Positions 1 through 43,190 of a DNA stretch of 64,000 nucleotides are shown here, piece after piece; position 1 is the first letter of the stretch; each line of letters opens with the position of its first letter. The notes under the pieces are model-generated. The model was not told the DNA's origin. It was given only the letters and a program-made list of their open reading frames with translations, and searched no databases. Where the stretch lies: positions 13,704,001 to 13,768,000 of the forward strand of contig CM075991.1 of assembly GCA_038087875.1 (NCBI GenBank). The letters run 5' to 3'. The DNA is from Malacoraja senta. Taxonomy: Eukaryota. Made by a program: the position numbers and the translations under genes.

Positions 1-2064
1 TCGTTAGGGTTTAGGGTCGTTAGGGTTTAGGGTCGTTAGGGTTTAGGGTCGTTAGGGTTTAGGGGTCGTTAGGGTTTAGGGTCGTTAGGGTTTAGGGTCG
101 TTAGGGTTTAGGGTCGTTAGGGTTTAGGGTCGTTAGGGTTTAGGGTCGTTAGGGTTTAGGGTCGTTAGGGTTTAGGGTCGTTAGGGTTTAGGGTCGTTAG
201 GGTTTAGGGTCGTTAGGGTTTAGGGTCGTTAGGGTTTAGGGTCGTTAGGGTTTAGGGTCGTTAGGGTTTAGGGTCGTTAGGGTTTAGGGTTTAGGTTTTG
301 GGTCGTTAGGGTTTAGGGTCGTTAGGGTTTAGGGTCGTTAGGGTTTAGGGTCGTTAGGGTTTAGGGTCGTTAGGGTTTAGGGTCGTTAGGGTTTAGGGTC
401 GTTAGGGTTTAGGGTCGTTAGGTTTAGGGTCGTTAGGGTTTAGGGTCGTTAGGGTTTTAGGGTCGTTAGGGTTTAGGGTCGTTAGGGTTTAGGGTCGTTA
501 GGGTTTAGGGTCGTTAGGGTTTAGGGTCGTTAGGGTTTAGGGTCGTTAGGGTTTAGGGTCGTTAGGGTTTAGGGTCGTTAGGGTTTAGGGTCGTTAGGGT
601 TTAGGGTCGTTAGGGTTTAGGGTCGTTAGGGTTTAGGGTCGTTAGGGTTTAGGGTCGTTAGGGTTTAGGGTCGTTAGGGTTTAGGGTCGTTAGGGTTTAG
701 GGTCGTTAGGGTTTAGGGTCGTTAGGGTTTAGGGTCGTTAGGGTTTAGGGTCGTTAGGGTTTAGGGTCGTTAGGGTTTAGGGTCGTTAGGGTTTAGGGTC
801 GTTAGGGTTTAGGGTCGTTAGGGTTTAGGGTCGTTAGGGTTTAGGGTCGTTAGGGTTTAGGGTCGTTAGGGTTTAGGGTCGTTAGGGTTTAGGGTCGTTA
901 GGGTTTAGGGTCGTTAGGGTTTAGGGTCGTTAGGGTTTAGGGTCGTTAGGGTTTAGGGTCGTTAGGGTTTAGGGTCGTTAGGGTTTAGGGTCGTTAGGGT
1001 TTAGGGTCGTTAGGGTTTAGGGTCGTTAGGGTTTAGGGTCGTTAGGGTTTAGGGTCGTTAGGGTTTAGGGTCGTTAGGGTTTAGGGTCGTTAGGGTTTAG
1101 GGTCGTTAGGGTTTAGGGTCGTTAGGGTTTAGGGTCGTTAGGGTTTAGGGTCGTTAGGGGTTTAGGGTCGTTAGGGTTTAGGGTCGTTAGGGTTTAGGGT
1201 CGTTAGGGTTTAGGGTCGTTAGGGTTTAGGGGTCGTTAGGGTTTAGGGTCGTTAGGGTTTAGGGTCGTTAGGGTTTAGGGTCGTTAGGGTTTAGGGTCGT
1301 TAGGGTTTAGGGTCGTTAGGGTTTAGGGGTCGTTAGGGTTTAGGGTCGTTAGGGTTTAGGGTCGTTAGGGTTTAGGGTCGTTAGGGTTTAGGGTCGTTAG
1401 GGTTTAGGGTCGTTAGGGTTTAGGGTCGTTAGGGTTTAGGGTCGTTAGGGTTTAGGGTCGTTAGGGTTTAGGGTCGTTAGGGTTTAGGGTCGTTAGGGTT
1501 TAGGGTCGTTAGGGTTTAGGGTCGTTAGGGTTTAGGGTCGTTAGGGTTTAGGGTCGTTAGGGTTTAGGGTCGTTAGGGTTTAGGGTCGTTAGGGTTTAGG
1601 GTCGTTAGGGTTTAGGGTCGTTAGGGTTTAGGGTCGTTAGGGTTTAGGGTCGTTAGGGTTTAGGGTCGTTAGGGTTTAGGGTCGTTAGGGTTTAGGGTCG
1701 TTAGGGTTTAGGGTCGTTAGGGTTTAGGGTCGTTAGGGTTTAGGGTCGTTAGGGTTTAGGGTCGTTAGGGTTTAGGGTCGTTAGGGTTTAGGGTCGTTAG
1801 GGTTTAGGGTCGTTAGGGTTTAGGGTCGTTAGGGTTTAGGGTCGTTAGGGTTTAGGGTCGTTAGGGTTTAGGGGGGTTAGGGTTTAGGGGGTTAGGGTTT
1901 AGGGGGGTTAGGGTTTAGGGGGGTTAGGGTTTAGGGGGGTTAGGGTTTAGAGGGGTTAGGGTTTAGAGGGGTTAGGGTTTAGAGGGGTTAGGGTTTAGAG
2001 GGTTAGGGTTTAGAGGGGTTAGGGTTTAGAGGGGTTAGGGGTTAGGGTTAGGGTTAGGGTTAGG
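1..2064 (+). repeat. Telomere-variant tandem array: (TCGTTAGGGTTTAGGG)n 16-mer to ~1870, then 16-mer variants TTAGGGTTTAGGGGGG and TTAGGGTTTAGAGGGG, ending in ~4 canonical TTAGGG
   Basis: Read directly. G-rich strand is on +, the 16-bp period is kept across variants, and canonical TTAGGG occurs at ~2035-2064. Confidence 0.97.
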
Positions 2065-2257
2065 TTGTGATTTATCGGACAGTGGGACAACATGCCCTCT
2101 GGTGCTTATTGATCTCCCCCTGGGGATTCCTTTTCACTGTGTACTGTCACTTGGTATTTGGCCCACGGTTTCATCACCCTTGTCCAAATCTATTTGCCTT
2201 ACACTTGCCCTTCCATAGATTTGTGCGAGTCAGTCAGGATCCACCCTAGGTTTGAGT

Positions 2258-3153
2258 TTATGCTAGATTTAGGCCATTAGGCTCTTTTGTCTGTAGCGCT
2301 TCTATCCATAGCCTCTCTGCTCTCTTGCGTCTCCCTGTTGTTGCCAGTGGATTGAGGTAGTGGTCAATGTATTCTGCTACCCCATAGGATTCGCTACTAC
2401 AGTCTGACACTATGGGCCTACCTGGCGGTATTTCTCCAGGCACTGTCCACGTGTCTGGGTTTTTGTGTATCTTTGGGAGCATGTAGAATTTCCTCGCCCT
2501 GGGTTGTGTTCCTGTTAGGTATTCTACTTGTTTCTCTAGGATGTATCCTGATGTCTTAAGCTCTTCCAAAATGTCCCCTATTTCCTTTTGTGTTTCTTTA
2601 TATATGGGCTCATCTAACTTAGTGTAGTGTTCTATCTTGTTCAGTTGTCTATGTGCCTCGAAGAGGTACTGTTGTCTGTCCATGATAACTATACTGCTCC
2701 CCTTGTCTGCTGGTTTGATCACTATCTCGTTATTATCTCTCAGCTCTGTCAAGGCCTGCCTCTCTTTTCTGGTGATGTTGGACTTATCTTTTGTTGTGGG
2801 CATATCCTCAATGGCTGATGCCTGTCTCTGTTATAAATTCTGTTATCTGTCCAGGGACATCCTCGTCGTCTGGGGTCCACCCTGTGAGTGGCCTAAAGGG
2901 TATAATTTCTGCAGGGCTCTGCGCCACTGAAGTGGTGTATTAACTTAATGGATCGGTAAAATCTGTGTAGGTCCCCCTGCACTTGTTCCTTGTGGGATTT
3001 GGGAGTAGGGACGAAGGTGAGGCCTCTGTTCAATACCCTCTCTTGGGTTTCGGTAAGGGAGAATGTTTGAGAAAGGTTGATGATTGTTTTCCCTAATTGT
3101 GGGCCCTGCCTCTCTTGGCATGGTGTCCCTAACAGTTTAAATGCTTCATCCAC
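2258..3153 (-). pseudogene. PLE ORF2, copy 1 (internally deleted RT/GIY-YIG; two 1-bp indels versus consensus)
   Basis: Motifs IINLS..LTETQERVLNRGLTFVPTP, IKPADKGSSIVIMD, FYMLPKIHK and PGRPIVS, then directly ERLWIEALQTKEPNGLN*. Confidence 0.85.
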
Positions 3154-4908
3154 TCTCTGATCATGGCTCGGGCTGTGGGTTCTGTCCAGTGGATGTGGTC
3201 TACGTTTACTTTAAACTGGCTGGTGGGGATAGTGGGAATGTGTTTCTGGGTCTGTATGTAGTCATTAAGCTTTCTGAGTGTGACCTGCTCTGGTGCTGGG
3301 AGAGACTGGCTGAAGTTGATCATAGGGACCCATATGCTGGCATTAGGGAATTTACGACTGGCCATCTTGATTAGTGTTTGGAGTTGTTTGATGGCAGTCT
3401 GTGGTCTTTGTTCCTTATTGTTAATGCCAAACGAGAGAATGACTTTTTGAGTTTCTGGGCATTGGATCAATTTGTCAAGGATGGAAGTGCCATGTATGCA
3501 TTTGGCTCCTGGATAGCTGTCCAATTGTATGTTGTTGTTGTTGGAGAATTTGGGGATCCTGGCAATGTTGGAATCTCCAATTATTAAAACAGGCTTGCTG
3601 GGTTGTAGTTTCCAGGTAACATTTTTCTGACATGTGTGTGGGTGTTTAGTTACTTCAGCCAGTCTCTTCCCTGGACCCCTCTGTGTGTGCTGCTGAAAGT
3701 CGTCCTGAGAGTTACTGACTGTGTCTGTAGTCGGGGCCCTCTGGTGCTGTGTGCAGGCCCTACGTGCTGGTCTAACCCTCGGTGCTGGGACCCCCTGTGT
3801 TAGAGTGGAAAGGGTTGGTGTGAGGGAAGGGGTAGCAGTACCGGACCTGTTTCCCTGTGGTACCGCGGTCGTGACCTCCTTTCCGGTTGTCTCCGTGGTC
3901 GGTTCGGTCTCCCCCCTGGAGGGTCTGCGCTCGGCCCGTGGTCTCCGGGGGAGAGGGCCGTGGGATTCGTGGCGTGAGGAGATGCTCCGGTAGATAAGGG
4001 CGGATGTGCTGGGGGAATCGGAGCGCGTGGGCCGTGTCCAGTCATCCGACCAGGTCTCGGTCTCGGACCGGAAGTGGGCCTGGGGCTCGTGTACCGGGGG
4101 GACCGGCTGGGCCGGCTGCTGCGGTCGCAACACCACGATCTGGGGGCTGTTGGGGGGGGTTATGTCGGGGCTGGCGGGAGCGGAGCCGTGGGCGGCGCGG
4201 CCGCGGGGAGCGGGGCCGCGGGGAGCGGAGCGGGACGCGCTCTGGACGGGGTCGGGACGGGTGGTGACCCAAGCGGTGCGTGGCCGCTCGATCTGGCTTT
4301 CCTGTGAAATAGTAAACAAGTCTTGCGGGATATTTACTGCCACATTCGACGTTACAGCCGCTGGCCTACGGGGCTGGGCCTCCCGTAGGCTGCTGCGCTG
4401 TTCAGGCCCAGTCTCTGAGGTCAGGTTCAAAACTCGATGTCTGAGGTCCTCCAATCTGATTTTAAATTTATCTCCCAAATTTCTCTTGTTCCAGATTAGG
4501 GCCTTGGCGACCGCTTCCTGTACACGATCCGTAGGTTGGCCCTCACGGTATTCATCCTCAAGATGCTCCAGACTATTTTGGTAATGTTCAATCAAAATTT
4601 GTCGTGTTTGTTTAGCCCAGGTTTCAGCATTAGAAGCTAATTTTTTTAATGTTTCCTGGGTGGGATTTGCTGGTTTTACAAAGTATGTTAATATCTTGGC
4701 CTGCCTCGTGATACCCTTAGGGGGTACGTTCCGTTCCTTTAGAACTCCTAGATGGTGTAAAGCCTGGGCCATTTTATAAATAACTCTAACAGCAACTGCA
4801 AAGGAATCCCTCTGTCTAGATTGATTCCTGTGCTGGTTGCGATTCACCCCATTAACTGTTGTTAAACAATCCCCTTCTCCCCCCTTCCCTCTGCATGCCA
4901 GAACTCAT
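3129..4908 (-). CDS. PLE ORF1, copy 1 (SGNH/GDSL esterase-domain protein; 1-bp insertion near 4854 versus copy 2)
   Basis: Protein matches 9277..11055. ATG at 4908 is put out of frame by an extra A (attaactgtt versus attactgtt). Confidence 0.85.
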
Positions 4909-5045
4909 TTCTGGCCTAGTCGATTATGCTGTAATGCTAATACAGACAAATCGAAGTATCAATTATCTCTAGCGTCGTAGGGTTAACACCAAGGTGCTCA
5001 CCAATTCTTTGGTTATTTGCCAGCTCGCGGAGACCGCTTGCCGAA

Positions 5046-5108
5046 CTCTTCCCGACTGGGCAACGATTTTCCAGTTTCGCTATCACTGTAGCTTCGTCAG
5101 GGAAAGAG
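5046..5108 (-). ncRNA. Type I hammerhead ribozyme (copy 1)
   Basis: Minus strand reads CUCUUUCC-CUGACGA-A-GCUA(CAGUGA)UAGC-GAAA-CUGG(AAAAUCGUUGC)CCAG-UC^GGGAAGAG. All three stems pair, the core is canonical, and GUC cleavage is predicted between 5054 and 5053. Confidence 0.93.
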
Positions 5109-5442
5109 ATCTAGTCCTAGCCGGTTAGGGTTTTTAAAGGGTAGGTTGATGCTCCTCCCTTTCTGGGTGGAGCTTGCCATGTGTTGGGTCCTAGGACCGG
5201 TCACTTTGGTTGGGCACACCCTGTTTCTTGTTTGGACTGGTTAGCCCTCTTCCTTTGTTGTGTTAGTTACCACATGTCTCTGGTATCTTGTATCCTTTAT
5301 TGCTAATGTTTTCAGCCTCTGTTGATCAATAAATGTGCAAAAATCTCTTGTCCACTATTATGTTCTGCAAGTCTTTAAGTTGTGTCTGTGCTCTGCCAAC
5401 ATGTTTCTAGTCTGTGTGACGCCAAAGGCTCTTCTGGGTAGG

Positions 5443-7884
5443 GGATCCTGGCTGGGGTAGGGGTGGGTATCGTGTTGTGGATTTGTCAGGGTCTCCTCCC
5501 TCTCTTTCGTGCCTGTCTGGTCTATGTGGACGTTTGGTAGGTTCCTCGTATAATGGCTGCTAGGGGGTTGGGGGGGGGTTTCTGGGTAGTTCGGGGTGTT
5601 TTTTGGGGTTGTTTGGGGTGATTCGGTGGGGGTCTGCTGTTAGGTTTAGGTTGTAGGGGAGGGGGGGTTTATCAGTTGTTTAGGGGGAATGTTTTGGGTT
5701 GTTCGGGTTGTTTTTTTAGGGTTGTTTGGGGTGATTCAGTGGGGTCTACTGTTAGGTTTAGGTTGTAGGGGATGGGGGGGGTTTATCTGTTTTTTGTGGG
5801 GGATGTTTTGGGTTGTTCGGGTGTTTTTTTGGGTTTGGGGCGATTCAGTGGGGTCTGCTGTTGGGGTTAGGGTAGTAGGGCAGGGGGGGGGGGGTTTATC
5901 AGTTATATTGGGGAAATGTTTTGGGTTTGGGGTGTTCTTTGGGGTGATCCAGTGGTGTCTGCGCATTAGGTTTAGGTTGTAGGGGGGGGGGTTTCCTTTG
6001 TTTGGGGGAGATGTTTTGAGTTTTTCGGGGTGTTTCTTTTGTTGTTTGGGGTGAGGGGGTCCTGGCTAGGGTAGGGGTGGGTATCGTGTTGTGGATTTGT
6101 CAGGGTCTCCTCCCTCTCTTTCGTGCCTGTCTGGTCTATGTGGACGTTTGGTAGGTTCCTCGTATAATGGCTGCTAGGGGGTTGGGGGGTTTTCTCTGGG
6201 TAGTTCGGGGTGTTTTTTGGGGTTGTTTAGGGTGATTCGGTGGGGGTCTGCTGTTAGGTTTAGGTTGTAGGGGAGGGGGGGGGTTTTCAGTTGTTTAGGG
6301 GGGATGTTTTGGGTTGTTTTTTAGGGTTGTTTGGGGTGATTCAGTGGGGTCTACTGTTAGGTTTAGGTTGTAGGGGATGGGGGGGGTTTATCTGTTGTTT
6401 GTGGGGGATGTTTTGGGTTGTTCGGGTGTTTTTTTGGTTTTGGGGCGATTCAGTGGGGTCTGCTGTTGGGGTTAGGGTAGTAGGGCAGGAGGGGGTTTAT
6501 CAGTTATATTGGGGAAATGTTTTGGGTTTGGGGTGTTCTTTGGGGTGATCCAGTGGTGTCTGCGCATTAGGTTTAGGTTGTAGGGGGGGGGGGGGTTTCT
6601 TTGTTTGGGGGAGATGTTTTGAGTTTTTCGGGGTGTTTCTTTTGTTGTTTGGGGTGAGGGGGTCCTGGCTAGGGTAGGGGTGGGTATCGTGTTGTGGATT
6701 TGTCAGGGTCTCCTCCCTCTCTTTCGTGCCTGTCTGGTCTATGTGGGCGTTTGGTAGGTTCCTCGTATAATGGCTGCTAGGGGGTTGGGGGGTTTTCTCT
6801 GGGTAGTTCGGGGTGTTTTTTGGGGTTGTTTGGGGTGATTCGGTGGGGGTCTGCTGTTAGGTTTAGGTTGTAGGGGAGGGGGGGGTTTATCAGTTGTTTA
6901 GGGGGGATGTTTTGGGTTGTTTTTTAGGGTTGTTTGGGGTGATTCAGTGGGGTCTACTGTTAGGTTTAGGTTGTAGGGGATGGGGGGGTTTATCTGTTGT
7001 TTGTGGGGGATGTTTTGGGTTGTTCGGGTGTTTTTTTGGTTTTGGGGCGATTCAGTGGGGTCTGCTGTTGGGGTTAGGGTAGTAGGGCAGGAGGGGGGTT
7101 TTATCAGTTATATTGGGGAAATGTTTTGGGTTTGGGGTGTTCTTTGGGGTGATCCAGTGGTGTCTGCGCATTAGGTTTAGGTTGTAGGGGGGGGGGGGGG
7201 GGTTCCTTTGTTTGGGGGAGATGTTTTGAGTTTTTCGGGGTGTTTCTTTTGGTTGTTTGGGGTGAGGGGGTCCTGGCTAGGGTAGGGGTGGGTATCGTGT
7301 TGTGGATTTGTCAGGGTCTCCTCCCTCTCTTTCGTGCCTGTCTGGTCTATGTGGGCGTTTGGTAGATTCCTCGTATAATGGCTGCTAGGGGGTAGGGGGG
7401 TTTTCTCTGGGCAGTTCGGGGTGTTTTTTGGGGTTGTTTGGGGTGATTCGGTGGGGGTCTGCTGTTAGGTTTAGGTTGTAGGGGAGGGGGGTTTATCAGT
7501 TGTTTAGGGGGATGTTTTGGGTTGTTCGGGTTGTTTTTTAGGGTTGTTTGGGGTGATTCAGTGGGGTCTACTGTTAGGTTTAGGTTGTAGGGGATGGGGG
7601 GGGGGGTTTATCTGTTGTTTGTGGGGGATGTTTTGGGTTGTTCGGGTGTTTTTTTGGGTTCGGGGCGATTCAGTGGGGTCTGCTGTTGGGGTTAGGGTAG
7701 TAGGGCAGGGGGGGGGGGAGTTTATCAGTTATATTGGGGAAATGTTTTGGGTTTGGGGTGTTCTTTGGGGTGATCCAGTGGTGTCTGCGCATTAGGTTTT
7801 AGGTTGTAGGGGAGGAGGGGGGCTCCGTTGTTTGGGGGAGATGTTTTGAGTTTTTCGGGGTGTTTCTTTTGTTGTTTGGGGTGA
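5443..7884. repeat. Four tandem ~605-bp G/T-rich repeats made of ~120-bp subrepeats with degenerate telomere-like motifs
   Basis: Units start at ~5443, 6057, 6660 and 7268 (TCCTGGCT.GGGTAGGGGTGGGTATCG). Recurrent TTAGGTTTAGGTTGTAGGGG, GGGGTTAGGGTAG and TTTAGGG. Confidence 0.93.
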
Positions 7885-8406
7885 TTCAGTGGGGTCTGCT
7901 GGGGGGGGGGCCTATCCGTGGTTTGGTTATGATTATCATGGGGTGAGTTGTGCTTTGCCTATCCAGTCTGACCATCCTTTGGCTCCCTCTCTGGTCCTCC
8001 CTGTCTCCCTATCCTAGTTTTAGAGTGTCCCTCACTTCAATCCTATGATTATTCGAGCCCACTCTATTTCGGTTTGTACTGTTATTCTCCATCATCCCCC
8101 CTTTGGTTTGGGTTTCACCCTCCTGACTCCATTTGAATCTTTTCTTGTGGCCTGCTCCTTCTGCGGTTTTGATTTGCCTGAGTGATGAAGCCCGTGTCAC
8201 TGTAAAGGTTAGGTTGTGATTTATCGGACAGTGGGACAACATGCCCTCTGGTGCTTATTGATCTCCCCCTGGGGATTCCTTTTCACTGTGTACTGTCACT
8301 TGGTATTTGGCCCACGGTTTCATCACCCTTGTCCAAATCTATTTGCCTTACACTTGCCCTTCCATAGATTTGTGCGAGTCAGTCAGGATCCACCCTAGGT
8401 TTGAGT

Positions 8407-9301
8407 TTATGCTAGATTTAGGCCATTAGGCTCTTTTGTCTGTAGCGCTTCTATCCATAGCCTCTCTGCTCTCTTGCGTCTCCCTGTTGTTGCCAGTGGA
8501 TTGAGGTAGTGGTCAATGTATTCTGCTACCCCATAGGATTCGCTACTACAGTCTGACACTATGGGCCTACCTGGCGGTATTTCTCCAGGCACTGTCCACG
8601 TGTCTGGGTTTTTGTGTATCTTTGGGAGCATGTAGAATTTCCTCGCCCTGGGTTGTGTTCCTGTTAGGTATTCTACTTGTTTCTCTAGGATGTATCCTGA
8701 TGTCTTAAGCTCTTCCAAAATGTCCCCTATTTCCTTTTGTGTTTCTTTATATATGGGCTCATCTAACTTAGTGTAGTGTTCTATCTTGTTCAGTTGTCTA
8801 TGTGCCTCGAAGAGGTACTGTTGTCTGTCCATGATAACTATACTGCTCCCCTTGTCTGCTGGTTTGATCACTATCTCGTTATTATCTCTCAGCTCTGTCA
8901 AGGCCTGCCTCTCTTTTCTGGTGATGTTGGACTTATCTTTTGTTGTGGGCATATCCTCAATGGCTGATGCTGTCTTCTGTTATAAATTCTGTTATCTGTC
9001 CAGGGACATCCTCGTCGTCTGGGGTCCACCCTGTGAGTGGCCTAAAGGGTATAATTTCTGCAGGCTCTGCGCCACTGAAGTGGTGTATTAACTTAATGGA
9101 TCGGTAAAATCTGTGTAGGTCCCCCTGCACTTGTTCCTTGTGGGATTTGGGAGTAGGGACGAAGGTGAGGCCTCTGTTCAATACCCTCTCTTGGGTTTCG
9201 GTAAGGGAGAATGTTTGAGAAAGGTTGATGATTGTTTTCCCTAATTGTGGGCCCTGCCTCTCTTGGCATGGTGTCCCTAACAGTTTAAATGCTTCATCCA
9301 C
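8407..9301 (-). CDS. PLE ORF2, copy 2: RT N-terminal region fused in frame to the GIY-YIG C-terminal tail (~297 aa consensus; one 1-bp frameshift near 8975)
   Basis: ORF-track pieces 8957..9301 and 8407..8952. RT motifs A/B/C (DxxSLY, QxxGxxMG, YxDD) are absent. Overlaps the ORF1 stop by 25 nt. Confidence 0.85.
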
Positions 9302-11055
9302 TCTCTGATCATGGCTCGGGCTGTGGGTTCTGTCCAGTGGATGTGGTCTACGTTTACTTTAAACTGGCTGGTGGGGATAGTGGGAATGTGTTTCTGGGTC
9401 TGTATGTAGTCATTAAGCTTTCTGAGTGTGACCTGCTCTGGTGCTGGGAGAGACTGGCTGAAGTTGATCATAGGGACCCATATGCTGGCATTAGGGAATT
9501 TACGACTGGCCATCTTGATTAGTGTTTGGAGTTGTTTGATGGCAGTCTGTGGTCTTTGTTCCTTATTGTTAATGCCAAACGAGAGAATGACTTTTTGAGT
9601 TTCTGGGCATTGGATCAATTTGTCAAGGATGGAAGTGCCATGTATGCATTTGGCTCCTGGATAGCTGTCCAATTGTATGTTGTTGTTGTTGGAGAATTTG
9701 GGGATCCTGGCAATGTTGGAATCTCCAATTATTAAAACAGGCTTGCTGGGTTGTAGTTTCCAGGTAACATTTTTCTGACATGTGTGTGGGTGTTTAGTTA
9801 CTTCAGCCAGTCTCTTCCCTGGACCCCTCTGTGTGTGCTGCTGAAAGTCGTCCTGAGAGTTACTGACTGTGTCTGTAGTCGGGGCCCTCTGGTGCTGTGT
9901 GCAGGCCCTACGTGCTGGTCTAACCCTCGGTGCTGGGACCCCCTGTGTTAGAGTGGAAAGGGTTGGTGTGAGGGAAGGGGTAGCAGTACCGGACCTGTTT
10001 CCCTGTGGTACCGCGGTCGTGACCTCCTTTCCGGTTGTCTCCGTGGTCGGTTCGGTCTCCCCCCTGGAGGGTCTGCGCTCGGCCCGTGGTCTCCGGGGGA
10101 GAGGGCCGTGGGATTCGTGGCGTGAGGAGATGCTCCGGTAGATAAGGGCGGATGTGCTGGGGGAATCGGAGCGCGTGGGCCGTGTCCAGTCATCCGACCA
10201 GGTCTCGGTCTCGGACCGGAAGTGGGCCTGGGGCTCGTGTACCGGGGGGACCGGCTGGGCCGGCTGCTGCGGTCGCAACACCACGATCTGGGGGCTGTTG
10301 GGGGGGGTTATGTCGGGGCTGGCGGGAGCGGAGCCGTGGGCGGCGCGGCCGCGGGGAGCGGGGCCGCGGGGAGCGGAGCGGGACGCGCTCTGGACGGGGT
10401 CGGGACGGGTGGTGACCCAAGCGGTGCGTGGCCGCTCGATCTGGCTTTCCTGTGAAATAGTAAACAAGTCTTGCGGGATATTTACTGCCACATTCGACGT
10501 TACAGCCGCTGGCCTACGGGGCTGGGCCTCCCGTAGGCTGCTGCGCTGTTCAGGCCCAGTCTCTGAGGTCAGGTTCAAAACTCGATGTCTGAGGTCCTCC
10601 AATCTGATTTTAAATTTATCTCCCAAATTTCTCTTGTTCCAGATTAGGGCCTTGGCGACCGCTTCCTGTACACGATCCGTAGGTTGGCCCTCACGGTATT
10701 CATCCTCAAGATGCTCCAGACTATTTTGGTAATGTTCAATCAAAATTTGTCGTGTTTGTTTAGCCCAGGTTTCAGCATTAGAAGCTAATTTTTTTAATGT
10801 TTCCTGGGTGGGATTTGCTGGTTTTACAAAGTATGTTAATATCTTGGCCTGCCTCGTGATACCCTTAGGGGGTACGTTCCGTTCCTTTAGAACTCCTAGA
10901 TGGTGTAAAGCCTGGGCCATTTTATAAATAACTCTAACAGCAACTGCAAAGGAATCCCTCTGTCTAGATTGATTCCTGTGCTGGTTGCGATTCACCCCAT
11001 TACTGTTGTTAAACAATCCCCTTCTCCCCCCTTCCCTCTGCATGCCAGAACTCAT
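9277..11055 (-). CDS. PLE ORF1, 592 aa: helical N-terminus, Pro/Arg/Thr-rich linker, C-terminal SGNH/GDSL esterase
   Basis: Uninterrupted ORF with SGNH blocks VLIIGDSN, SYPGA, ILSFGINN and VDHIHW. Confidence 0.9.
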   Translation of the reverse strand: MSSGMQREGGRRGLFNNSNGVNRNQHRNQSRQRDSFAVAVRVIYKMAQALHHLGVLKERNVPPKGITRQAKILTYFVKPANPTQETLKKLASNAETWAKQTRQILIEHYQNSLEHLEDEYREGQPTDRVQEAVAKALIWNKRNLGDKFKIRLEDLRHRVLNLTSETGPEQRSSLREAQPRRPAAVTSNVAVNIPQDLFTISQESQIERPRTAWVTTRPDPVQSASRSAPRGPAPRGRAAHGSAPASPDITPPNSPQIVVLRPQQPAQPVPPVHEPQAHFRSETETWSDDWTRPTRSDSPSTSALIYRSISSRHESHGPLPRRPRAERRPSRGETEPTTETTGKEVTTAVPQGNRSGTATPSLTPTLSTLTQGVPAPRVRPARRACTQHQRAPTTDTVSNSQDDFQQHTQRGPGKRLAEVTKHPHTCQKNVTWKLQPSKPVLIIGDSNIARIPKFSNNNNIQLDSYPGAKCIHGTSILDKLIQCPETQKVILSFGINNKEQRPQTAIKQLQTLIKMASRKFPNASIWVPMINFSQSLPAPEQVTLRKLNDYIQTQKHIPTIPTSQFKVNVDHIHWTEPTARAMIREWMKHLNC

Positions 11056-11192
11056 TTCTGGCCTAGTCGATTATGCTGTAATGCTAATACAGACAAATCG
11101 AAGTATCAATTATCTCTAGCGTCGTAGGGTTAACACCAAGGTGCTCACCAATTCTTTGGTTATTTGCCAGCTCGCGGAGACCGCTTGCCGAA

Positions 11193-11255
11193 CTCTTCCC
11201 GACTGGGCAACGATTTTCCAGTTTCGCTATCACTGTAGCTTCGTCAGGGAAAGAG
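11193..11255 (-). ncRNA. Type I hammerhead ribozyme (copy 2)
   Basis: Identical to 5046-5108. Predicted cleavage is 145 nt upstream of the ORF1 ATG. Confidence 0.93.
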
Positions 11256-11594
11256 ATCTAGTCCTAGCCGGTTAGGGTTTTTAAAGGGTAGGTTGATGCT
11301 CCTCCCTTTCTGGGTGGAGCTTGCCATGTGTTGGGTCCTAGGACCGGTCACTTTGGTTGGGCACACCCTGTTTCTTGTTTGGACTGGTTAGCCCTCTTCC
11401 TTTGTTGTGTTAGTTACCACATGTCTCTGGTATCTTGTATCCTTTATTGCTAATGTTTTCAGCCTCTGTTGATCAATAAATGTGCAAAAATCTCTTGTCC
11501 ACTATTATGTTCTGCAAGTCTTTAAGTTGTGTCTGTGCTCTGCCAACATGTTTCTAGTCTGTGTGACGCCAAAGGCTCTTCTGGGTAGGGGATC

Positions 11595-11794
11595 NNNNNN
11601 NNNNNNNNNNNNNNNNNNNNNNNNNNNNNNNNNNNNNNNNNNNNNNNNNNNNNNNNNNNNNNNNNNNNNNNNNNNNNNNNNNNNNNNNNNNNNNNNNNNN
11701 NNNNNNNNNNNNNNNNNNNNNNNNNNNNNNNNNNNNNNNNNNNNNNNNNNNNNNNNNNNNNNNNNNNNNNNNNNNNNNNNNNNNNNNNNNNNNN
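11595..11794. other. Assembly/scaffold gap (200 N)
   Basis: Run of exactly 200 N. Confidence 0.99.
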
Positions 11795-12516
11795 TCTCCG
11801 CTCTCCCCTCCCATCCGTATCCGAGATCTGGCCGCCATTGCTGGTCCGGTTGCCGCCTCGCACGCGACCGCTGGAAAACCAACGCAGAATCACTCCCTGA
11901 CCCTGGAGCTGGAGTAACTCCCTGGAATAACTCTTGCTTCTAGTTTCCTGGTCCTCCATAAATATTCTAAATGGAATTTAAACTGGAGGGCTGAACAATA
12001 ACAGCCTATTGCATTTTATCTGTTTATTTATTGTGTATATATATGGTATATGGTATATAAACACACTGAACTTTTATCTCCTGTTCTGTATTATGTTTAC
12101 ATATCCTGTGAGACATGACAATAAAACTCTCTTGACTCTTGACTTGGACTTAAGCAAAAAAGGGTTCTTGGGGAAAAATGAGGTACCTTAAATTTAGTTG
12201 CATCTGGTTGGGTAACTATGGTAGGGTGAAGACTATTCCATGCTTTAATTGTGCGGGGGAACTCCATGGAGCAGGCAGCAACTCTGGATAGAAGAAATTG
12301 AGTGACGTTTCGGGTAGAGACCCTTCTTTAGACTCCCTCTGGTCTATCCCACACATTAGCATCAAGGGTGTTTTATTCTCTCACTTTCCAGTTAGAACAA
12401 TGAAATCCTTACTTGCAGCAGCACAACAGAATATGTAAACATAGTACTCTGTAAACAATGTTATAAACGAGGAAACAAAACGGTGTATATTTATATATGA
12501 ATATATAACTATACAA

Positions 12517-12518
<2 letters not shown>

Positions 12519-12586
<68 letters not shown>

Positions 12587-12610
12587 ATATATATATATAT
12601 ATTATATATG

Positions 12611-12660
<50 letters not shown>
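12519..12660. repeat. (GT)n/(TA)n microsatellite
   Basis: Read directly. Confidence 0.97.
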
Positions 12661-12662
<2 letters not shown>

Positions 12663-13380
12663 CCCACAAACACACAATTTCCCTCCTGGGATTAACAAAG
12701 TTCTATCGTATAGTATTCTGTGCGTAGGAAGGAACTGCAGATGGTGGTTTAAACTAAAGATGGACACAAAAAGCAGGAGTAACTCAACAGGTCAGACAGA
12801 ATCTCTGGACAAAAGGAAAATATTACGTTTTGGGTTTGGTCTGAAATAGGTTCCTGCACACCTTTGGAATGTGGAGGGAAATAAGAGCACCCGGAGAAAA
12901 CCCATGCGATCAAAGAGAAAAGGAGCAAACTCTATACAGACAGCACCCATATTCAGGATCAATTCCGGGTCTCTGGCACTTTTAGGCAGCAACTTTATGG
13001 CCAATGTACTGCCCCATAGTCTTGAACTTAATTAAAACATACAGTAGCTGTAAGGGGGACATAGCGTCACTTGGAGATTTAAAACTGAAAATGAATATTT
13101 TCATTTTTTTTAGTAACCAAAGTTATCAACGTATAATTTTGTGTGTGTGGAAAACAAAATATAGTGGCACAGCTGGTAGAGTTGCTGCCTCACACGCCAG
13201 AGATCTGTGTCCTCGGGCACTGTATGTGTTGAATTTGTACATTCTCCCTGCAAGCGTGTGGGCTTCCTCCCACATCCCAAAGACGCATTGGCTTTGTAGG
13301 TTAACTTGTCTCTGTAATATTGCCCCAAATGTGTAGGGAGTGGGTGAGGAAAGTGGGATAACAGAACTTATGTGAATGGG

Positions 13381-14550
13381 TAGACAAAAATGCTGGAGAA
13401 ACTCAGCGAGTGAGGCAGCATCTATGGAGCGAAGGAAATAGGCGACGTTTCAGGTCGAGACCCTTCTTCAGACTGATGTGAGGGTGGGGGGGACGGGAGG
13501 AAGAAAGGAAGAGGCGGAGACAGTGGGCTGAGGGAGAGCTGTGAAAGGGAGGAGAAAGCAGGGATTACCAGAAATTGAAGAAGTCAATGTTCATACCGCT
13601 GGGGTGTAAACTGCCCAAGCAAAATATGAGGTGCTGCTCCTCCAATTTACGGTGGGCCTCACACTGGCCATGCAAAAGGCCCAGGACAGAAAGGTCGGTT
13701 TTCAGAATGGGAGGGGGAGTTGAAGTGCTGAGCCACGGGGAGATCAGCTTGGTTATTGCAGACCGAGCGGAGTTGTTGGGCGAAGCGATCGCCAAGCCTA
13801 CAATTGGTCTCACCGATATAGAGCAGCTGACACCTAGAGCAGTGGATGCAATAGATGAGGTTGGAGGAGGTGCAGGTGAACCTCTGCCACACCTGGACAG
13901 ACTGCTTGGGTCCTTGAAAGGAGTCAAGGGCGGAGGTAAAGCGACAAGTGTAGCATTTCCTGCGGTTGCAAGGGAAAGTGCCAGGAGAGGCGGTGGTTTG
14001 GGTGGGAAGGGACGAATTGACCAGGGAGTTACGGAGGGAGCGGTCTCTGTGGAAAGCCAACGGGGGAGGAGATGAGAAGATGAGGCCAGTGGTGGCATCC
14101 CATTGGTAGACAAAAAAGCTGGAGAAAATCAGCGGGTAAGGCAGCATCTATGGTGCGAAGGAATAGATGACGTTTCGCGTCGAGACCCATCTTCAGATTG
14201 ATGTCGGGGGGTGGGGGGGGGGCACACGAAAAAGAAAGTAAGAGGCAGAGACAGTAGGCTGTGGGAGAGCTGGGAATTGGAGGGGAAGGAGGGATAAAGC
14301 AAGGACTATCTGAAATTAGAGAAGCCAATGTTCATACCGCTGGGGTGTAAACTACCCAAGCAAATATCTGCTCCTCCAATGTGTGGTGGGCCTCACTCTG
14401 GCCATGGAGGAGGCCCTGGACAGCAAGATCGGATTCAGAATGGGAAGGGGAGTTGAAGTGTTGTGCCACCGGGACATCAGGTTGGTTATTGCGAACTGAG
14501 TGGAGGTGTGTGCGAAGCGATCGCCAAGCCTGCGCTTGGACTCACCGAGG
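13381..14550 (-). mobile_element. Two tandem 3' fragments of a dispersed Penelope-like element (GIY-YIG end plus terminal repeat with minimal hammerhead)
   Basis: CTSSNLIYCIHCSRCQLLYIGET and KLEEQHLIFCLGSLHPSGMNIDF. CTGAAGAAGGGTCTCGACCTGAAACGTC on - at ~13444-13471. Confidence 0.85.
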
Positions 14551-26679: not shown

Positions 26680-29600
26680 ACATAGATACATAGAAAATAG
26701 GTGCAGGAGTAGGCCATTCGGCCCTTCGAGCCTGCACCGCCATTCAATATGATCATGGCTGATCATCCAACTCAGTATCCCGTACCTGCCTTCTCTCCAT
26801 ACCCCCTGATCCCTTTAGCCACAAGGGCCACATCTAACTCCCTCTTACATATAGCCAATGAACTGGCCTCAACTACCCTCTGTGGCAGAGAGTTCCAGAG
26901 ATTCACCACTCTCTGTGTGAAAAAGTTTTTTCTCATCTCGGTCTTAAAGGATTTCCCCCTTATCCTTAAGCTGTGACCCCTTGTCCTGGACTTCCCCAAC
27001 ATCGGGAACAATCTTCCTGCATCTAGCCTGTCCAACCCTATAAGAAATTTGTACGTTTCTATAAGATCCCCTCTCAATCTCCTAAATTCTAGCGAGTATA
27101 AGCCAAGTCTATCCAGTCTTTCTTCATATGAATGTCCTGACATCCCAGGAATCAGTCTGGTGAACCTTCTCTGCACTCCCTCTATGGCTATAATGTCCTT
27201 CCTCAGATTTGGAGACCAAAACTGTACACAATACTCCAGGTGTGGTCTCACCAAGACCCTGTACAACTGCAGTAGAACCTCCCTGCTCCTATACTCAAAT
27301 CCTTTTGCTATGAAAGCTAACATACCATTCGCTTTCTTCACTGCCTGCTGCACCTGCATGCCTACTTTCAATGACTGGTGTACCATGACACCCAGGTCTC
27401 GCTGCATCTCCCCTTTTCCTAATCGGCCACCATTTAGATAATAGACTTCTTTCCTGTTTTTGCCACCAAAGTGGATAACCTCACATTTATCCACATTATA
27501 CTGCATCTGCCAAACATTTGCCCACTCACCCAGCCTATCCAAGTCACCTTGCAGTCTCCTAGCATCCTCCTCACAGCTAACACTGCCCCCCAGCAGTGTC
27601 ATCCGCAAACTTGGAGATGTTGCCTTCAATTCCCTCATCCAGTTCATTAATATAAATTATAAATAGCTGGGGTCCCAGCACTGAGCCTTGCGGTACCCCA
27701 CTAGTCACTGCCTGCCATTGTGAAAAGGACCCGTTTACTCCTACTCTTTGCTTCCTGTTTGCCAGCCCATTCTCTATCCACATCAATACTGAACCCCCAA
27801 TACCGTGTGCTTTAAGTTTGTATACTAATCTCTTATGTGGGACCTTGTCGAAAGCCTTCTGAAAGTCCAGATACAACACATCCACTGGTTCTCCCTTATC
27901 CACTCTACCAGTTACATCCTCGAAAAATTCTATAAGATTCGTCAGACATGATTTACCTTTCGTAAATCCATGCTGACTTTGTCCAATGATTTCACCACTT
28001 TCCAAATGTGCTGCTATCCCATCTTTAGTAACTGACTCTAGCAGTTTCCCCACTACCGATGTTAGCCTAACTGGTTTGTAATTCCCCGTTTTCTCTCTTC
28101 CTCCCTTCTTAAAACGTGGGGTTACATTTGCTACCCTCCAATCCTCAGGAACTACTCCAGAATCTAAAGAGTTTTGAAAAATTATCACTAATGCATCCAC
28201 TGTTTCTGGAGCTACTTCCTTAAGTACTCTGGGATGCAGCCTATCGGGCCCTGGTGATTTATCTGCCTTTAATCCATTCAATTTACCCAACACCACTTCC
28301 CAACTAACCTGGATTTCACTCAGTTCCTCCATCTCCTTTGACCCGCGGTCCCCTGCTATTTCCGGCAGATTATTTATGTCTTCCTCAGTGAAGACGGAAC
28401 CAAAGTAGTTATTCAATTGGTCCGCCATATCCTTGTTCCCCATGATCAATCCACCTGTTTCTGACTGCAAGGGACCTACATTTGTTTTAACTAATCTCTT
28501 TCTCTTCACATATCTATAAAAACTTTTGCAGTCAGTTTTTATGTTCCCTGCCAGTTTTCTTTCATAATCTATTTTCCCTTTCCTAATTAAGCCCTTTGTC
28601 CTCCTCTGCTGGGCTCTGAATTTCTCCCAGTCCTCTGGTATGCTGCTTTTTCTGGCCAATTTGTACGCATTGATACTATCCCTGATTTGCCTTGTTATCC
28701 ACGGATGCACTACCTTCCCTGATTTATTCTTTTGCCAAACTGGGATGAACAATTTTTGTAGTTCATCCATGCAGTCTTTAAATGCCTTCCATTGCATATC
28801 CACCGTCAACCCTTTTAGAACTAATTGCCAGTCAATCTTGGCCAATTCACGTCTCATACCCTCAAAGTTACCTTTCTTTAAGTTCAGAACTGTTGTTTCT
28901 TAATTAACAATGTCACTCTCCATCCTAATGAAGAACTCAACCATATTATGGTCACTCTTGCCCAAGGGGGCACGCACAACAAGACTGCTAACTAACCCTT
29001 CCTCATTACTCAATACCCAGTCTAGAATAGCCTGCTCTCTCGTTGGTTCCTCTACATGTTGGTTTAGATAACTATCCCACATACATTCCAAGAAATCCTC
29101 TTCCTCAGCACCCCTGCCAATTTGATTCACCCAATCTATATGTAGATTGAAGTCACCCATTATAACTGTTTTGCCTTTGTTGCACGCATTTCTAATTTCC
29201 TGTTTGATGCCATCCCCAACTTCACCACTACTGCTAGGTGGCCTGTACACAACACCCACCAGCGTTTTCTGCCCCTTAGTGTTTCGCAGCTCTACCCATA
29301 CCGATTCCACATCCTCCAAGCTAATGTCCTTCCTTTCCACTGCGTTAATCTCCTCTCTAACCAGCAACGCTACCCCACCTCCTTTTCCTTTCTCTCTATC
29401 CCTCCTGAATATTGAATATCCCTGGATGTTCAGCTCCCAGCCTTGGTCACCCTGGAGCCATGTCTCCGTGATCCCAACTATATCATAATCATTAATAGCT
29501 ATCTGCACGTTCAACTCATCCACCTTATTACGAATGCTCCTTGCATTGAGACACAAAGCCTTCAGGCTTGTTTTTACAACGCTCTTACCCCTTATACAAT

Positions 29601-41944: not shown

Positions 41945-43190
41945 GTCAAGATTCAAGATTCAAGATTCAAGAGAGTTTATTGTCATGTGTCCCAGATAGG
42001 ACAATGAAATTCTTGCTTTGCTTCAGCACAACAGAATATGGTAGGCATGAATACAGAACAGATCAGTGTGTCCATATACCATTATATAAATATATGCACA
42101 CATGAATAAATAAACAGATAATGTGCAAATAAACAGTTAATGGGCTATTAATGTTCAGAGTTTTGTTTGAGTTCAGTTTAATAGCCTGATGGCTGTGGGG
42201 AAGAGCTATTCCTGAAGCTGGACGTTGCAGTCTTCAGGCTCCCGTGCCTTCTACCTGAAGGTAGCGGGGAGATGAGTGTGTGGCCAGGGTGGTATGGGTC
42301 CTTGATGATGCTGCCAGCCTTTTTGAGGCAGCGACTGCGATAGATCCCCTTGATGGTAGGGAGGTCAGAGCCGATGATGGACTGGGCAGTGTTTACTACT
42401 TCTTGTAGTCTTTTCTGCTCCTGGGCACAAGTTGCCGAACCAAGCCATGATGCAACCGGTCAGCATGCTCTCTACTGTGCACATGTAGAAGTTAGAGAGA
42501 GACCTCCTTGACATACCGACTCTCCATAATCTTCTCATGAAGTAGAGGCGCTGATGTGCTTTCTTTATAATTGCATCAGTATTCTCGGACCAGGAGAGAT
42601 CTTCAGAGATGTGCACGCCCAGGAATTTGAAGCTCTTGACCCTCTCCACCATCGACCCGTTCATATAAATGGGACTGTGGGTCCCCATCCTACTCCTTCC
42701 AAAGTCCACAATCAGTTCCTTGGTTTTGCTGGTGTTGAGGGCCAGATTATTGTACTGGCACCATTTGGTCAGTTGGTCGATCTCACTTCTGCACTCTGAC
42801 TCCTCCCCATCAGTGATACATCCCACAACAGTGGTGTCGTCAGCGAACTTGATGGTGGTGTTCGCACTATGACCGGCTACGCAGTCATGAGTATAGAGTG
42901 AGTACAGCAGGGGCTGAGCACGCAGCCTTGAGGTGCTCCCTTGCTGATTGTTATCGAGGCTGACACCTTTCCACCAATACCAACTGACTGTGGTCTGTGA
43001 ATGAGGAAGTCGAGGATCCAAATGCAGAGGGAAACACAGATACCCAGTTCTACGAGTTTGGTAACCAGCTTGGAGGGGATGATTGTATTAAATGCCGAGC
43101 TGTAATCAATGAATAACAGCCTGGCATATGAGTTTTTGTTGTCCAAGTGGTCCAGAGCGGAGTGGAGAGTCAGCTAGATCGCATCTGTTG
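41945..43190 (-). mobile_element. Rex1/Babar-like LINE 3' part (RT)
   Basis: [53 protein letters not shown]. (TCTTGAA)n tail after AATAAA. Confidence 0.85.

Follow-up and report, generated by a model that had tools for sequence, protein, structure and literature searches.

A Penelope-like element, probably specific to telomeric repeats and encoding a GIY-YIG endonuclease, in the skate Malacoraja senta

Telomere-associated retroelements and the skate family

The reverse transcriptases (RTs) of Penelope-like elements (PLEs) are the closest relatives of telomerase. Among LINEs, SART1 and TRAS1 of Bombyx mori encode an endonuclease and insert nowhere but in telomeric repeats, always with the same orientation and register; elements and repeats coexist. 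To our knowledge, a telomere-dedicated element of such a kind has not been described in a vertebrate, and a search of the full-text literature returned no account of a retrotransposon specific to telomeres in this group. In lake sturgeon, GIY-YIG PLEs bounded by telomere-like repeats are mentioned in passing, and left uninterpreted, in the relevant passage of PMC12031113. PLEs are described in PMC8557442 as split into endonuclease-bearing members, inserting anywhere, and endonuclease-less ones, living at telomeres. For Athena, Coprina and the Terminons, the traits given are reverse-complement telomeric repeats at the 3′ end, fixed polarity, capped 5′-truncated copies and terminal arrays (PMC8557442, PMC6431247, PMC3846280).

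The family reported here has two copies in a window of 64,000 nucleotides (the whole stretch of DNA analysed; Malacoraja senta, CM075991.1) and is most probably a telomeric-repeat-specific, endonuclease-encoding (EN+) PLE. As such, it would break the rule above, because the endonuclease is kept and yet the element sits on telomeric repeats only, in a vertebrate. If confirmed, it would offer a tractable vertebrate system for how a GIY-YIG element gains target specificity, how chromosome ends are shared between retroelements and telomerase, and how subtelomeres and interstitial telomeric arrays arise.

With Athena/Coprina (bdelloid rotifers, fungi, protists, plants) and the Terminons, the skate element shares a PLE-type RT and, as far as the cited accounts describe them, a telomeric complement at the RNA 3′ end, fixed G-strand polarity, telomere-capped 5′-truncated copies, and head-to-tail or interspersed arrays at chromosome ends. 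However, Athena and Coprina are without endonuclease, whereas the GIY-YIG domain of the skate element is present and open at 20 of 26 full-length loci; their hammerhead adjoins the tail, whereas none was detected in the skate element with Rfam. The sequence-only reading had likened the family to this class; since the endonuclease is kept, the family is not Athena-like. Terminons reach up to 40 kb with many accessory ORFs, compared to 7467 bp and two ORFs here, and a GDSL esterase is the only accessory domain common to both. Unlike the hosts of all three groups, the skate is a vertebrate with TTAGGG telomeres.

The working model favoured here is that of SART1/TRAS1, which are alike in having insertion confined to telomeric repeats at a fixed register and orientation, although these insect elements have an AP-type endonuclease, a LINE RT and no tandem pseudo-LTR, in contrast to the GIY-YIG domain, PLE RT and tandems of the skate element. 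Canonical fish EN+ PLEs (Neptune, Penelope/Poseidon) have the same ORF2 architecture, 45–50% identity (teleost PLE proteins) and the same tandem/pseudo-LTR organisation; they differ by a single ORF, genome-wide insertion and a hammerhead, where the skate element has a separate ORF1, telomeric repeats as its only site and no hammerhead by Rfam. The CX2-5CxxC linker between RT and endonuclease, named for Neptune and Nematis in PMC8557442, recurs as CGQRRCGAC. The C-terminal esterase of ORF1 resembles that of CR1/L2-type LINE ORF1 (ZfL2-1, PDB 4c1b), albeit in a PLE. Non-LTR retrozymes are reported as tandem non-autonomous vertebrate PLE derivatives, with Xenopus multimers enriched near chromosome termini (bioRxiv 10.64898/2026.07.22.740005). 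On that account, they resemble the skate derivatives in being small ends-only units in long tandem arrays, but retrozymes are defined by hammerhead ribozymes, whereas none was detected in the skate element, whose 330-bp units are joined through the telomere-complement tail. Finally, the HeT-A/TART/TAHRE arrays of Drosophila replace telomerase repeats altogether, whereas in the skate canonical repeats cap and separate the copies.

The window and its two deleted units

Features of the window are listed in Table 1. Its first 2064 bp are a telomere-type repeat with the G-strand on the plus strand, for which Tandem Repeats Finder reported 128 copies of the 16-bp unit TCGTTAGGGTTTAGGG at 1–2048 (98% match), the unit shifting to other variants from ~1860. 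Within the tract, canonical TTAGGG with at least three repeats in a row occurs only at 2042–2059. As the 16-bp variant dominates and canonical TTAGGG fills only the last ~25 bp, the tract is a telomere-derived variant satellite ending in about four canonical repeats, rather than plain TTAGGG. The earlier statement that a TTAGGG tract runs straight into the antisense strand of a PLE is thus correct for the direct junction at 2065 but not for the composition of the tract. Leftward of the window, the tract extends for at least 4 kb as TCGTTAGGGTTTAGAG; it starts between C15:13698060 and 13700001, with ordinary DNA reached by C15:13698060 according to short probes. An identical 16-mer array lies upstream of another element copy, at C5:4.247–4.249 Mb.

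Table 1. Coordinates of repeat and element features in the window.
Feature	Position	Strand	Remarks
16-bp telomere-variant satellite, (TCGTTAGGGTTTAGGG)n	1–1859	+	G-strand on +
Transition zone: other telomere variants, GGGGGGTTAGGGTTTA then GAGGGGTTAGGGTTTA units	1860–2041	+	Read directly in the sequence
About four canonical TTAGGG repeats	2042–2064	+	Last 7 nt GGTTAGG (2058–2064) = element 3′ tail
Unit 1, 3′ untranslated end	2065–2257	−	Element sense positions ~7275–7467
Unit 1, ORF2 remnant	2258–3128	−	N-terminal PLE domain to RT motifs 1–2, fused in frame to last ~30 codons
Unit 1, ORF1	3129–4904	−	591 aa stop-to-stop
Unit 1, unique 5′ leader	4905–5440	−	
Unit 1, 5′ repeat region	5441–7910	−	Four ~610-bp repeats made of ~109-bp subrepeats
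Unit 1, 5′ terminal segment	7911–8206	−	Ends ...CACTGTAAA at 8206
Unit 2	8207–11594	−	Tail GGTTAGG 8207–8213, body from 8214
Run of 200 N	11595–11794		Scaffold join; right limit of assembled array

The antisense strand of the PLE begins directly at 2065, and the ORFs lie on the minus strand. The GGTTAGG preceding it (CCUAACC in RNA) is assigned to the element because it is present at every head-to-tail junction. Direct repeats at offsets of 6147–6149 bp reveal a second head-to-tail unit starting at 8207/8214, so the near-identical tandem partner that had been claimed is real: at the 6148-bp offset, an alignment of 3383 columns shows 4 indels and no mismatch between the units (99.88% alike). 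The ORF2 remnant of unit 1 carries a 1324-bp deletion (junction 2336–2341) and an additional frameshift upstream. Unit 2 shares the deletion (junction 8485–8490), has ORF2 remnants at 8407–8979 and 8957–9358 and ORF1 at 9277–11070 (597 aa), and is incomplete, as a gap interrupts its 5′ leader. Because of the deletion, the GIY-YIG domain is missing from both. They are internally deleted, non-autonomous derivatives without RT core and endonuclease, but with both termini and ORF1. The 5′ repeat region of unit 1 is strongly G-biased on the plus strand (43% G, 9% C), with 37 TTAGG against 0 CCTAA and seven G-quadruplex motifs against none on the minus strand.

Public read runs (X1–X4) were compared with window positions 2030–5300, of which the non-repeat part, i.e., beyond 2074, was taken in. 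Among the read contigs listed (789 further pieces lie beyond these), none bridged the deletion junction at 2336–2341, and the loose ends there corresponded to the full-length form. That the telomere-type/element junction of the window might be a chimeric join of the assembly is very improbable: although an N gap cuts the array and the read comparison covers the element side of the junction only, the assembly contains the identical junction 46 times, on 21 contigs and in both orientations, and in public runs of this organism the read depth over the element 3′ end is 5–10 times that over the ORFs.

Coding capacity and age of the full-length element

The full-length element encodes ORF1 of 597 aa and ORF2 of 759 aa, and its RNA terminates in ...CACAACCUAACC. 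ORF2 consists, in order, of PLE N-terminal motifs, RT, a Zn-finger-like CX4CxxC linker and an intact GIY-YIG endonuclease. The Pfam RVT_1 profile scored 27.5 bits, slightly below its 29.6 cut-off, and GIY-YIG (PF01541) 27.2 bits, over its cut-off of 22.6. A homologue search returned 2396 matches carrying PF00078/PF28514/PF26215, the teleost PLE-type proteins among them being 45–50% identical. In an alignment of seven ORF2 sequences (the query, P0001, P0002 and four teleost homologues), the RT columns KPADKG, PKIHK, GRPIVS and YLDD-type were invariant, as were the endonuclease columns Y670, C674, C677, Y681, G683, R692, H696, E741 and N757; the catalytic ones are likewise kept in a 94% and a 55% identical relative. 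The CGQRRCGAC linker is present in the query, P0001 and P0002 and absent from the four teleost homologues. With an RT and a GIY-YIG endonuclease in ORF2, the PLE identity proposed earlier is well founded.

The N-terminal part of ORF1 is lineage-specific, and a Pro/Ser/Thr/Arg-rich middle separates it from a C-terminal SGNH/GDSL esterase domain. Its last 150 residues are predicted to fold as an SGNH hydrolase, the best match of the model being the PAF acetylhydrolase-type 2hsj (E 2e-7, TM 0.67); the domain also matches 4c1b (E 4e-6, 21% identity), and GDS(N) and DxxH are invariant. The N-terminal two-thirds have a single clear relative at 81% identity. The relatives in public data are P0001 (94% to ORF2) and P0121 (81% to ORF1). 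Small shares of element words were also seen in runs of several other organisms, and X3 and X4 gave low-depth pieces.

No hammerhead family of Rfam was found in window 1–14000 at E≤1, nor in 7850–8550 at E≤10 with lax filters, a search whose models divergent minimal motifs could escape. In this respect the element departs from canonical and telomeric PLEs alike. No other Rfam family was matched by the 3′ untranslated end in window 1–14000, and the element 3′ end folds no better than shuffles (z +0.64). The remaining Rfam matches were microsatellite-driven miRNA look-alikes at 12.5–12.7 kb and a weak match to NEAT1_2, and were rejected.

Across 26 non-deleted loci, ORF2 is open at 20, ORF1 at 18 and both at 14. 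ORF2 copies are 99.56–100% identical (median 99.96%), in agreement with the recent activity that had been proposed: the family is very young. The distinct ORF2 changes comprise 9 synonymous and 8 non-synonymous ones, a ratio of ~0.24 that derives from only 17 changes and from a set chosen beforehand for open frames, which left out 6 of the 26 copies. The endonuclease part alone has 1 synonymous and 3 non-synonymous changes, too few for power. Near-identity could partly come from array recombination, gene conversion or assembly collapse instead of repeated transposition.

Junctions, chromosome ends and the mode of insertion

A 27-nt word from the element 3′ end occurs 223 times genome-wide (reversed control 0). 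Of these 3′ ends, 46 are joined to telomeric repeats by the exact junction GGTTAGGGTTAGG/TTGTGA, on 21 contigs and in both orientations (control 0), 164 follow another unit by the head-to-tail junction CACTGTAAA-GGTTAGG/TTGTGA, and 13 are those whose flanks were not listed; none of the 223 was found joined directly to other, non-telomeric DNA. The preceding G is present at every 3′ end, C or T before GGTTAGG at none, and at least 7 nt of CCTAACC (sense) at every junction, unit-to-unit ones included. The polarity noted in the window, with 3′ ends on the telomeric G-strand, is therefore the same everywhere, and dispersed copies lacking telomeric flanks, sought genome-wide as a potential refutation, were absent among exact 3′ ends. 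The complete 5′ terminus occurs 164 times genome-wide, within tandems only, and is followed by telomeric repeats in no case. Truncated 5′ ends meet TTAGGG at seven element positions (333, 446, 1524, 1597, 2355, 2396 and 7378), each at a G-run, which argues for independent events. Telomeric tracts between copies go down to 24–150 bp.

Derivatives retaining the ends form units of graded size (6148, ~4500, ~3800, 1561, 1443 and 330 bp). The 330-bp unit combines 196 bp of the 3′ end with 154 bp of the 5′ end, joined via the telomere-complement tail, and occurs in runs of more than 30 identical units; 1561-bp units are also tandem. A head-to-head inversion of arrays was seen at C14:18.313 Mb. The tandem arrays, holding 164 of the 223 3′ ends and many mini-units, can grow by unequal exchange. 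A subtelomeric satellite, in which a few ancient insertions were amplified and spread by unequal crossing-over, break-induced replication and ectopic exchange while the family hardly or no longer transposes, would agree with this share of internal tandem junctions and the runs of identical 330-bp units, with the lack of substitutions between the two window units, with the same 16-bp satellite preceding both the C15 and C5 copies, and with the C14 inversion. Nevertheless, it is improbable as the main explanation, since the seven truncation points and very unequal tract lengths point to independent events, both long ORFs remain open at 14 of 26 loci, small isolated copies occupy unrelated internal sites, and synonymous changes among copies are above expectation.

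The terminal arrays that had been claimed are represented by one real case, the start of scaffold C17 (12.39 Mb). It opens with a (CCCTAA)n cap at 5–310, followed by a copy that begins at sense position 333 and has its 3′ end at 6333, (CCCTAA)n at 6339–6482, and a second copy ending at 11844, after which canonical repeats grade into degenerate ones to ~13.9 kb. Both copies are 5′-truncated with the element 5′ ends distal and telomeric repeats between them; this is a genuine terminal array at a telomere-capped chromosome end, the only capped one among the ends of large scaffolds/contigs inspected (13 left, 12 right). The window, by comparison, is not demonstrably terminal as had been assumed: it lies 576–640 kb inward of the scaffold end and borders a scaffold gap, and this position (~0.6 Mb) itself rests on the scaffold join. 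The C5 copy, 4.25 Mb from a scaffold end, also stops at an N run. As both stop at N gaps, their chromosomal positions are uncertain, and therefore neither can serve as proof of interstitial insertion. Two other sites are short and interstitial: the copy at C4152:472490 has only ~24 bp of telomere-like sequence ahead of it inside SINE-like DNA (short probes), and a 97-bp 3′ fragment at C12:8.28 Mb is flanked by two repeats on one side and three on the other, with a possible target duplication. Both sites speak against the need for a free chromosome end. Assembly contigs break at arrays of the element.

An Athena-like attachment to ends is possible, albeit rather doubtful. Here the endonuclease would be unused in integration, the CCUAACC tail would pair with a single-stranded G-overhang or deprotected end, the chromosome would be lengthened by reverse transcription, telomerase would re-cap the truncated 5′ end, and arrays would be successive terminal additions. 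The polarity at the capped C17, with the 5′ end distal, the tail complementary to the G-strand at every junction, and the absence of dispersed copies among exact 3′ ends are all as expected. So are 5′-truncated copies capped by telomeric repeats at variable positions, which the accounts in PMC3846280 and PMC8557442 give for endonuclease-deficient PLEs; moreover, the window and C5 contigs end within an array, distal to variant-repeat satellites, which would look like chromosome ends if the scaffold joins are wrong. However, 20 of 26 copies have an intact GIY-YIG domain with conserved catalytic columns, whereas known end-attaching PLEs have lost it, the C4152 and C12 copies lie at short telomere-like sites within ordinary DNA, inter-copy tracts are as short as 24–150 bp, and no hammerhead motif was found by Rfam beside the tail. 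The sequence-only reading of self-addition by chromosome-end priming is partly supported, by the telomere-repeat specificity, the fixed polarity and the C17 array, but free-end priming is not required because full-length copies keep an intact GIY-YIG. Nor need the arrays be successive end additions: PLEs are usually organised in tandem, and head-to-tail units that have no telomeric repeats between them fit this pattern.

The reading that we favour is that of a telomeric-repeat-specific EN+ PLE, with the window as the proximal edge of one of its arrays. The anatomy, the junction counts, the coding capacity, the young age and a single real terminal array are observed directly; the priming step, the 3′-OH source and the adder of distal repeats we infer as follows. 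The terminal CCUAACC of the RNA would pair with a 3′-OH on the telomeric G-strand (...GGTTAGG-3′), and reverse transcription would lay down the antisense strand in constant register and polarity. By analogy with insect telomere-specific LINEs, there is about an even chance that the element’s own endonuclease provides the 3′-OH by nicking duplex TTAGGG; a chromosome end, natural or deprotected, might supply it instead. Head-to-tail tandems would form with the unit boundary always internal, and the outermost copy would be 5′-truncated, with TTAGGG repeats resuming after it. These distal repeats might be joined, by telomerase or microhomology, at G-runs of the G-rich, TTAGG-studded antisense 5′ region. 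The deleted window units were presumably mobilised or amplified in trans.

It is unlikely that this PLE extends chromosome ends in a jawed vertebrate with TTAGGG telomeres, element and telomerase alternating in building the terminus. In that case, the CCUAACC tail would prime on a G-strand end, and the distal G-rich, TTAGG-studded and quadruplex-prone cDNA could be directly re-extended by telomerase. The family would then blur the accepted line between genome-wide EN+ and telomeric EN− PLEs, and would stand, in a living vertebrate, as an intermediate between retroelements and end maintenance by telomerase. A profile search for the telomerase gene with Pfam PF12009 gave no match in the genome, and the control genomes behaved in the same way.

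Junctions between the element and telomeric repeats

The element family is very probably a Penelope-like element (PLE) specific to telomeric repeats. A 27-nt word from its 3' end occurs 223 times in the genome assembly (1.94 Gb, 6182 contigs), and the reversed control word not once. The 3' end is joined to telomeric repeats in 46 cases on 21 contigs, 23 per orientation (GGTTAGGGTTAGG directly followed by TTGTGA...), and to the next unit, head-to-tail, in another 164; the remaining 13 must be sequence variants. No exact 3' end lacked the preceding G, and none had C or T before GGTTAGG. The sequence-only reading had proposed a PLE that adds itself to telomeres, and the fixed telomeric flanks were borne out: dispersed copies without them, named there as the main observation against it, numbered zero among the exact 3' ends. 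The heptamer GGTTAGG also separates successive units and is therefore part of the element, whose RNA ends in CCUAACC.

The complete 5' terminus was found 164 times and was never followed by telomeric repeats. In each array, (TTAGGG)n is followed by at least one unit, then by a 5'-truncated unit and finally by (TTAGGG)n again. Seven such 5' caps joined to TTAGGG were found, each at a G-run and each at its own position in the element; they represent independent events.

Placement in the window and at scaffold ends

The window (G000:C15:13704001-13768000) begins within a 16-bp satellite, which is a telomere-derived variant and switches to other unit variants from about position 1860; canonical TTAGGG in runs of at least three is confined to 2042-2059. 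To the left, the satellite extends at least 4 kb beyond the window, at first as TCGTTAGGGTTTAGAG, and ordinary DNA is already reached at C15:13698060, which gives a satellite length of about 6-8 kb. At window 2065 it meets the antisense strand of the element, the ORFs being encoded on the minus strand. The second unit follows as a direct repeat at an offset of 6147-6149 bp; the two units are 99.88% alike across 3383 aligned columns and differ by four indels but by no substitution.

Coordinates of the main features in the window and at the left end of scaffold C17
Sequence	Coordinates	Strand	Feature
Window	1-2048	+ (G-strand)	16-bp telomere-variant satellite TCGTTAGGGTTTAGGG, 128 copies, 98% match
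Window	8200-8219		Unit-to-unit junction ...CACTGTAAA / GGTTAGG / TTGTGATTT...
Window	11595-11794		Run of 200 N, cuts unit 2
Window	26772-30069, 42365-43087, 55214-56666	-	LINE fragments with AP-endonuclease and reverse-transcriptase domains
C17	5-310		(CCCTAA)n cap
C17	3' end at 6333		First element copy, from sense position 333
C17	6339-6482		(CCCTAA)n between copies
C17	ends at 11844		Second element copy
C17	to ~13.9 kb		Canonical repeats (170 bp), then degenerate repeats

The scaffold C15 is 14,344,143 bp long and the window lies 576-640 kb from its right end; therefore, the finding is not at a contig end. A real chromosome end is present at the left of the 12.39-Mb scaffold C17, which carries a capped terminal array with the 5' ends of the element directed toward the terminus, as the sequence-only reading had predicted. 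This was the sole correctly oriented terminal cap among the 13 left and 12 right scaffold or contig ends inspected. At the right end of C4490, a truncated copy is followed by degenerate G-strand repeats up to the contig end, and several small contigs begin within G-strand tracts preceding copies or break within copies.

A similar arrangement to that of the window is present at C5:4.25 Mb (4247376-4251014), where the 16-bp satellite (1213 exact two-unit matches genome-wide) passes through GGTCAG variants and two canonical repeats into an element copy; 1365 bp of this copy are present before an N run cuts it off, as happens to the window copy. Because of these N gaps, both "interstitial" placements depend on scaffold joins. 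Two smaller copies lie in ordinary DNA: one at C4152:472490, preceded by about 24 bp of telomere-like sequence, and a 97-bp 3' fragment at C12:8.28 Mb, flanked by two and three repeats, possibly with an imperfect target duplication.

An element cluster of about 160 kb lies on scaffold C14, at a distance of 86 kb from the right scaffold end. It opens with canonical TTAGGG repeats (at least 4.5 kb) and continues through forward arrays to a gap-free switch at 18.313 Mb, and then through reverse arrays and 400 bp of CCCTAA into a GTCGTCTTC-type satellite. At the switch (C14:18312100-18314700), the arrays flip from forward to reverse within about 450 bp, with 5' ends face to face and no N gap; the sequence in between contains a (GAA)n microsatellite and jumbled pieces of the element, together with a short TTAGGG tract. 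A fusion of two telomeres, an inverted duplication or a misassembly could each explain this structure. The GACGACGAAGAC / GTCGTCTTC-type satellite, which may be subtelomeric or centromeric, also forms several ends (C14 right, C15 left, C4472 right and C2833 left) and occupies C14:18406493-18409092, directly after the telomeric tract flanking the cluster.

Apart from the PLE units, the window held LINE fragments and nothing related to the PLE finding, the DNA past the 200-N gap being ordinary and rich in transposable elements. An ORF at window 13659-14147 (minus strand) with a GIY-YIG-like motif (…LIYCIHCSRCQLLYIGET…) comes from a different, degraded PLE and had no Pfam match at E<=0.001. A 63-bp tandem repeat (six copies, 98% match) occupies 30771-31153. 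Sub-threshold matches to mir-297, mir-466 and mir-5014 at 12520-12660 were rejected as composition artefacts of a (TG)n(TA)n microsatellite.

Element proteins, proposed priming and related elements

Near-identical copies of the element are numerous in the genome, and most hold 1324 bp absent from both window units; a natural copy (C14:18244607-18252073, 7467 bp) served as the coordinate reference. ORF2 (759 aa) matches Pfam RVT_1 and GIY-YIG, and its 2396 homologues include teleost PLE-type proteins at 45-50% identity, one relative at 94% and one at 55%. All endonuclease catalytic columns are conserved in the alignment with homologues. The linker between the reverse transcriptase (RT) and the endonuclease, CGQRRCGAC, corresponds to the CX2-5CxxC feature named for Neptune and Nematis by Craig et al. 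(PMC8557442). For ORF1 (597 aa), just 12 relatives were found: one has 81% identity, and the rest resemble it only in the C-terminal third. This third is predicted to fold as an SGNH hydrolase (mean pLDDT 84, pTM 0.80), with the PAF-acetylhydrolase-type 2hsj as the best structure match (E 2e-7) and a further match to the esterase domain 4c1b, which is part of the ORF1 protein of zebrafish L2. The esterase-like domain of the element contains the invariant motifs GDSN and DxxH. In the window units, an in-frame deletion (...YLNPLA / TTGRRKRAERLW) removes the RT core and the endonuclease, and together with a further frameshift it renders them non-autonomous.

The 5' 2.5 kb of the element consists of ~610-bp repeats made of ~109-bp subunits. 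Its strand continuous with the telomeric G-strand contains 43% G and 9% C, 37 TTAGG against no CCTAA, and seven quadruplex motifs, compared to none on the opposite strand. Rfam models detected neither a hammerhead ribozyme nor any other family at the element termini, and the 3' end had no unusual fold.

Reverse transcription would be primed, via the CCUAACC tail of the RNA, on a G-strand 3'-OH ending in ...GGTTAGG, as indicated by this tail, the unvarying register and the polarity. The favoured source of the 3'-OH, with confidence about evenly balanced, is an endonuclease nick within duplex telomeric repeats. Priming on natural chromosome ends, described for Athena and Coprina (PMC3846280), is rather improbable here: it would account for the complete lack of dispersed copies and for the contig-end contexts, but the GIY-YIG domain is intact in the element and its relatives, and small copies occupy short internal telomere-like sites, and for these two reasons the nick is preferred.

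The element resembles Athena, Coprina and the Terminons in its behaviour at telomeres. However, it keeps the endonuclease, whose loss is their defining feature, and has no detected adjacent hammerhead. SART and TRAS of Bombyx show a comparable repeat-specific insertion, although their enzymes are unrelated. With the endonuclease-bearing PLEs of fish (Neptune-like linker), it has ORF2 in common; it differs from them by an additional esterase ORF1, strict telomeric confinement and the lack of a detectable hammerhead. No vertebrate telomere-specific retrotransposon was found in the literature searched, whose scope excluded subscription journals and Repbase; a sturgeon paper mentions, without comment, GIY-YIG PLEs bounded by telomere-like repeats (PMC12031113).

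Coding capacity, derivatives and sequencing reads

Among 26 non-deleted loci, the 759-aa frame is open in 20, the 597-aa frame in 18 and both in 14. The ORF2 copies are 99.56-100% identical, with 9 synonymous and 8 non-synonymous distinct changes (ratio ~0.24), a comparison of few changes from pre-selected open copies with no power for the endonuclease alone. Graded derivatives retain both termini, down to a 330-bp unit (3' 196 bp plus 5' 154 bp) forming arrays of more than 30 units. Since the mini-units are identical and the two window units lack substitutions, array growth surely proceeded partly by recombination, but recombination alone would leave the varied 5' caps unexplained.

Reads covering the element, including both full-length and mini-unit junctions, are present in public sequencing runs from one organism; their depth is 5-10 times higher at the 3' end. 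In addition, 8-24% of the element's sampled words were present in runs assigned to other organisms or to fish metagenomes (X3-X24), where they could stem from relatives, from data of this species filed under different labels or from carry-over. Two of these runs (X3 and X4) contained near-identical element pieces at low depth.
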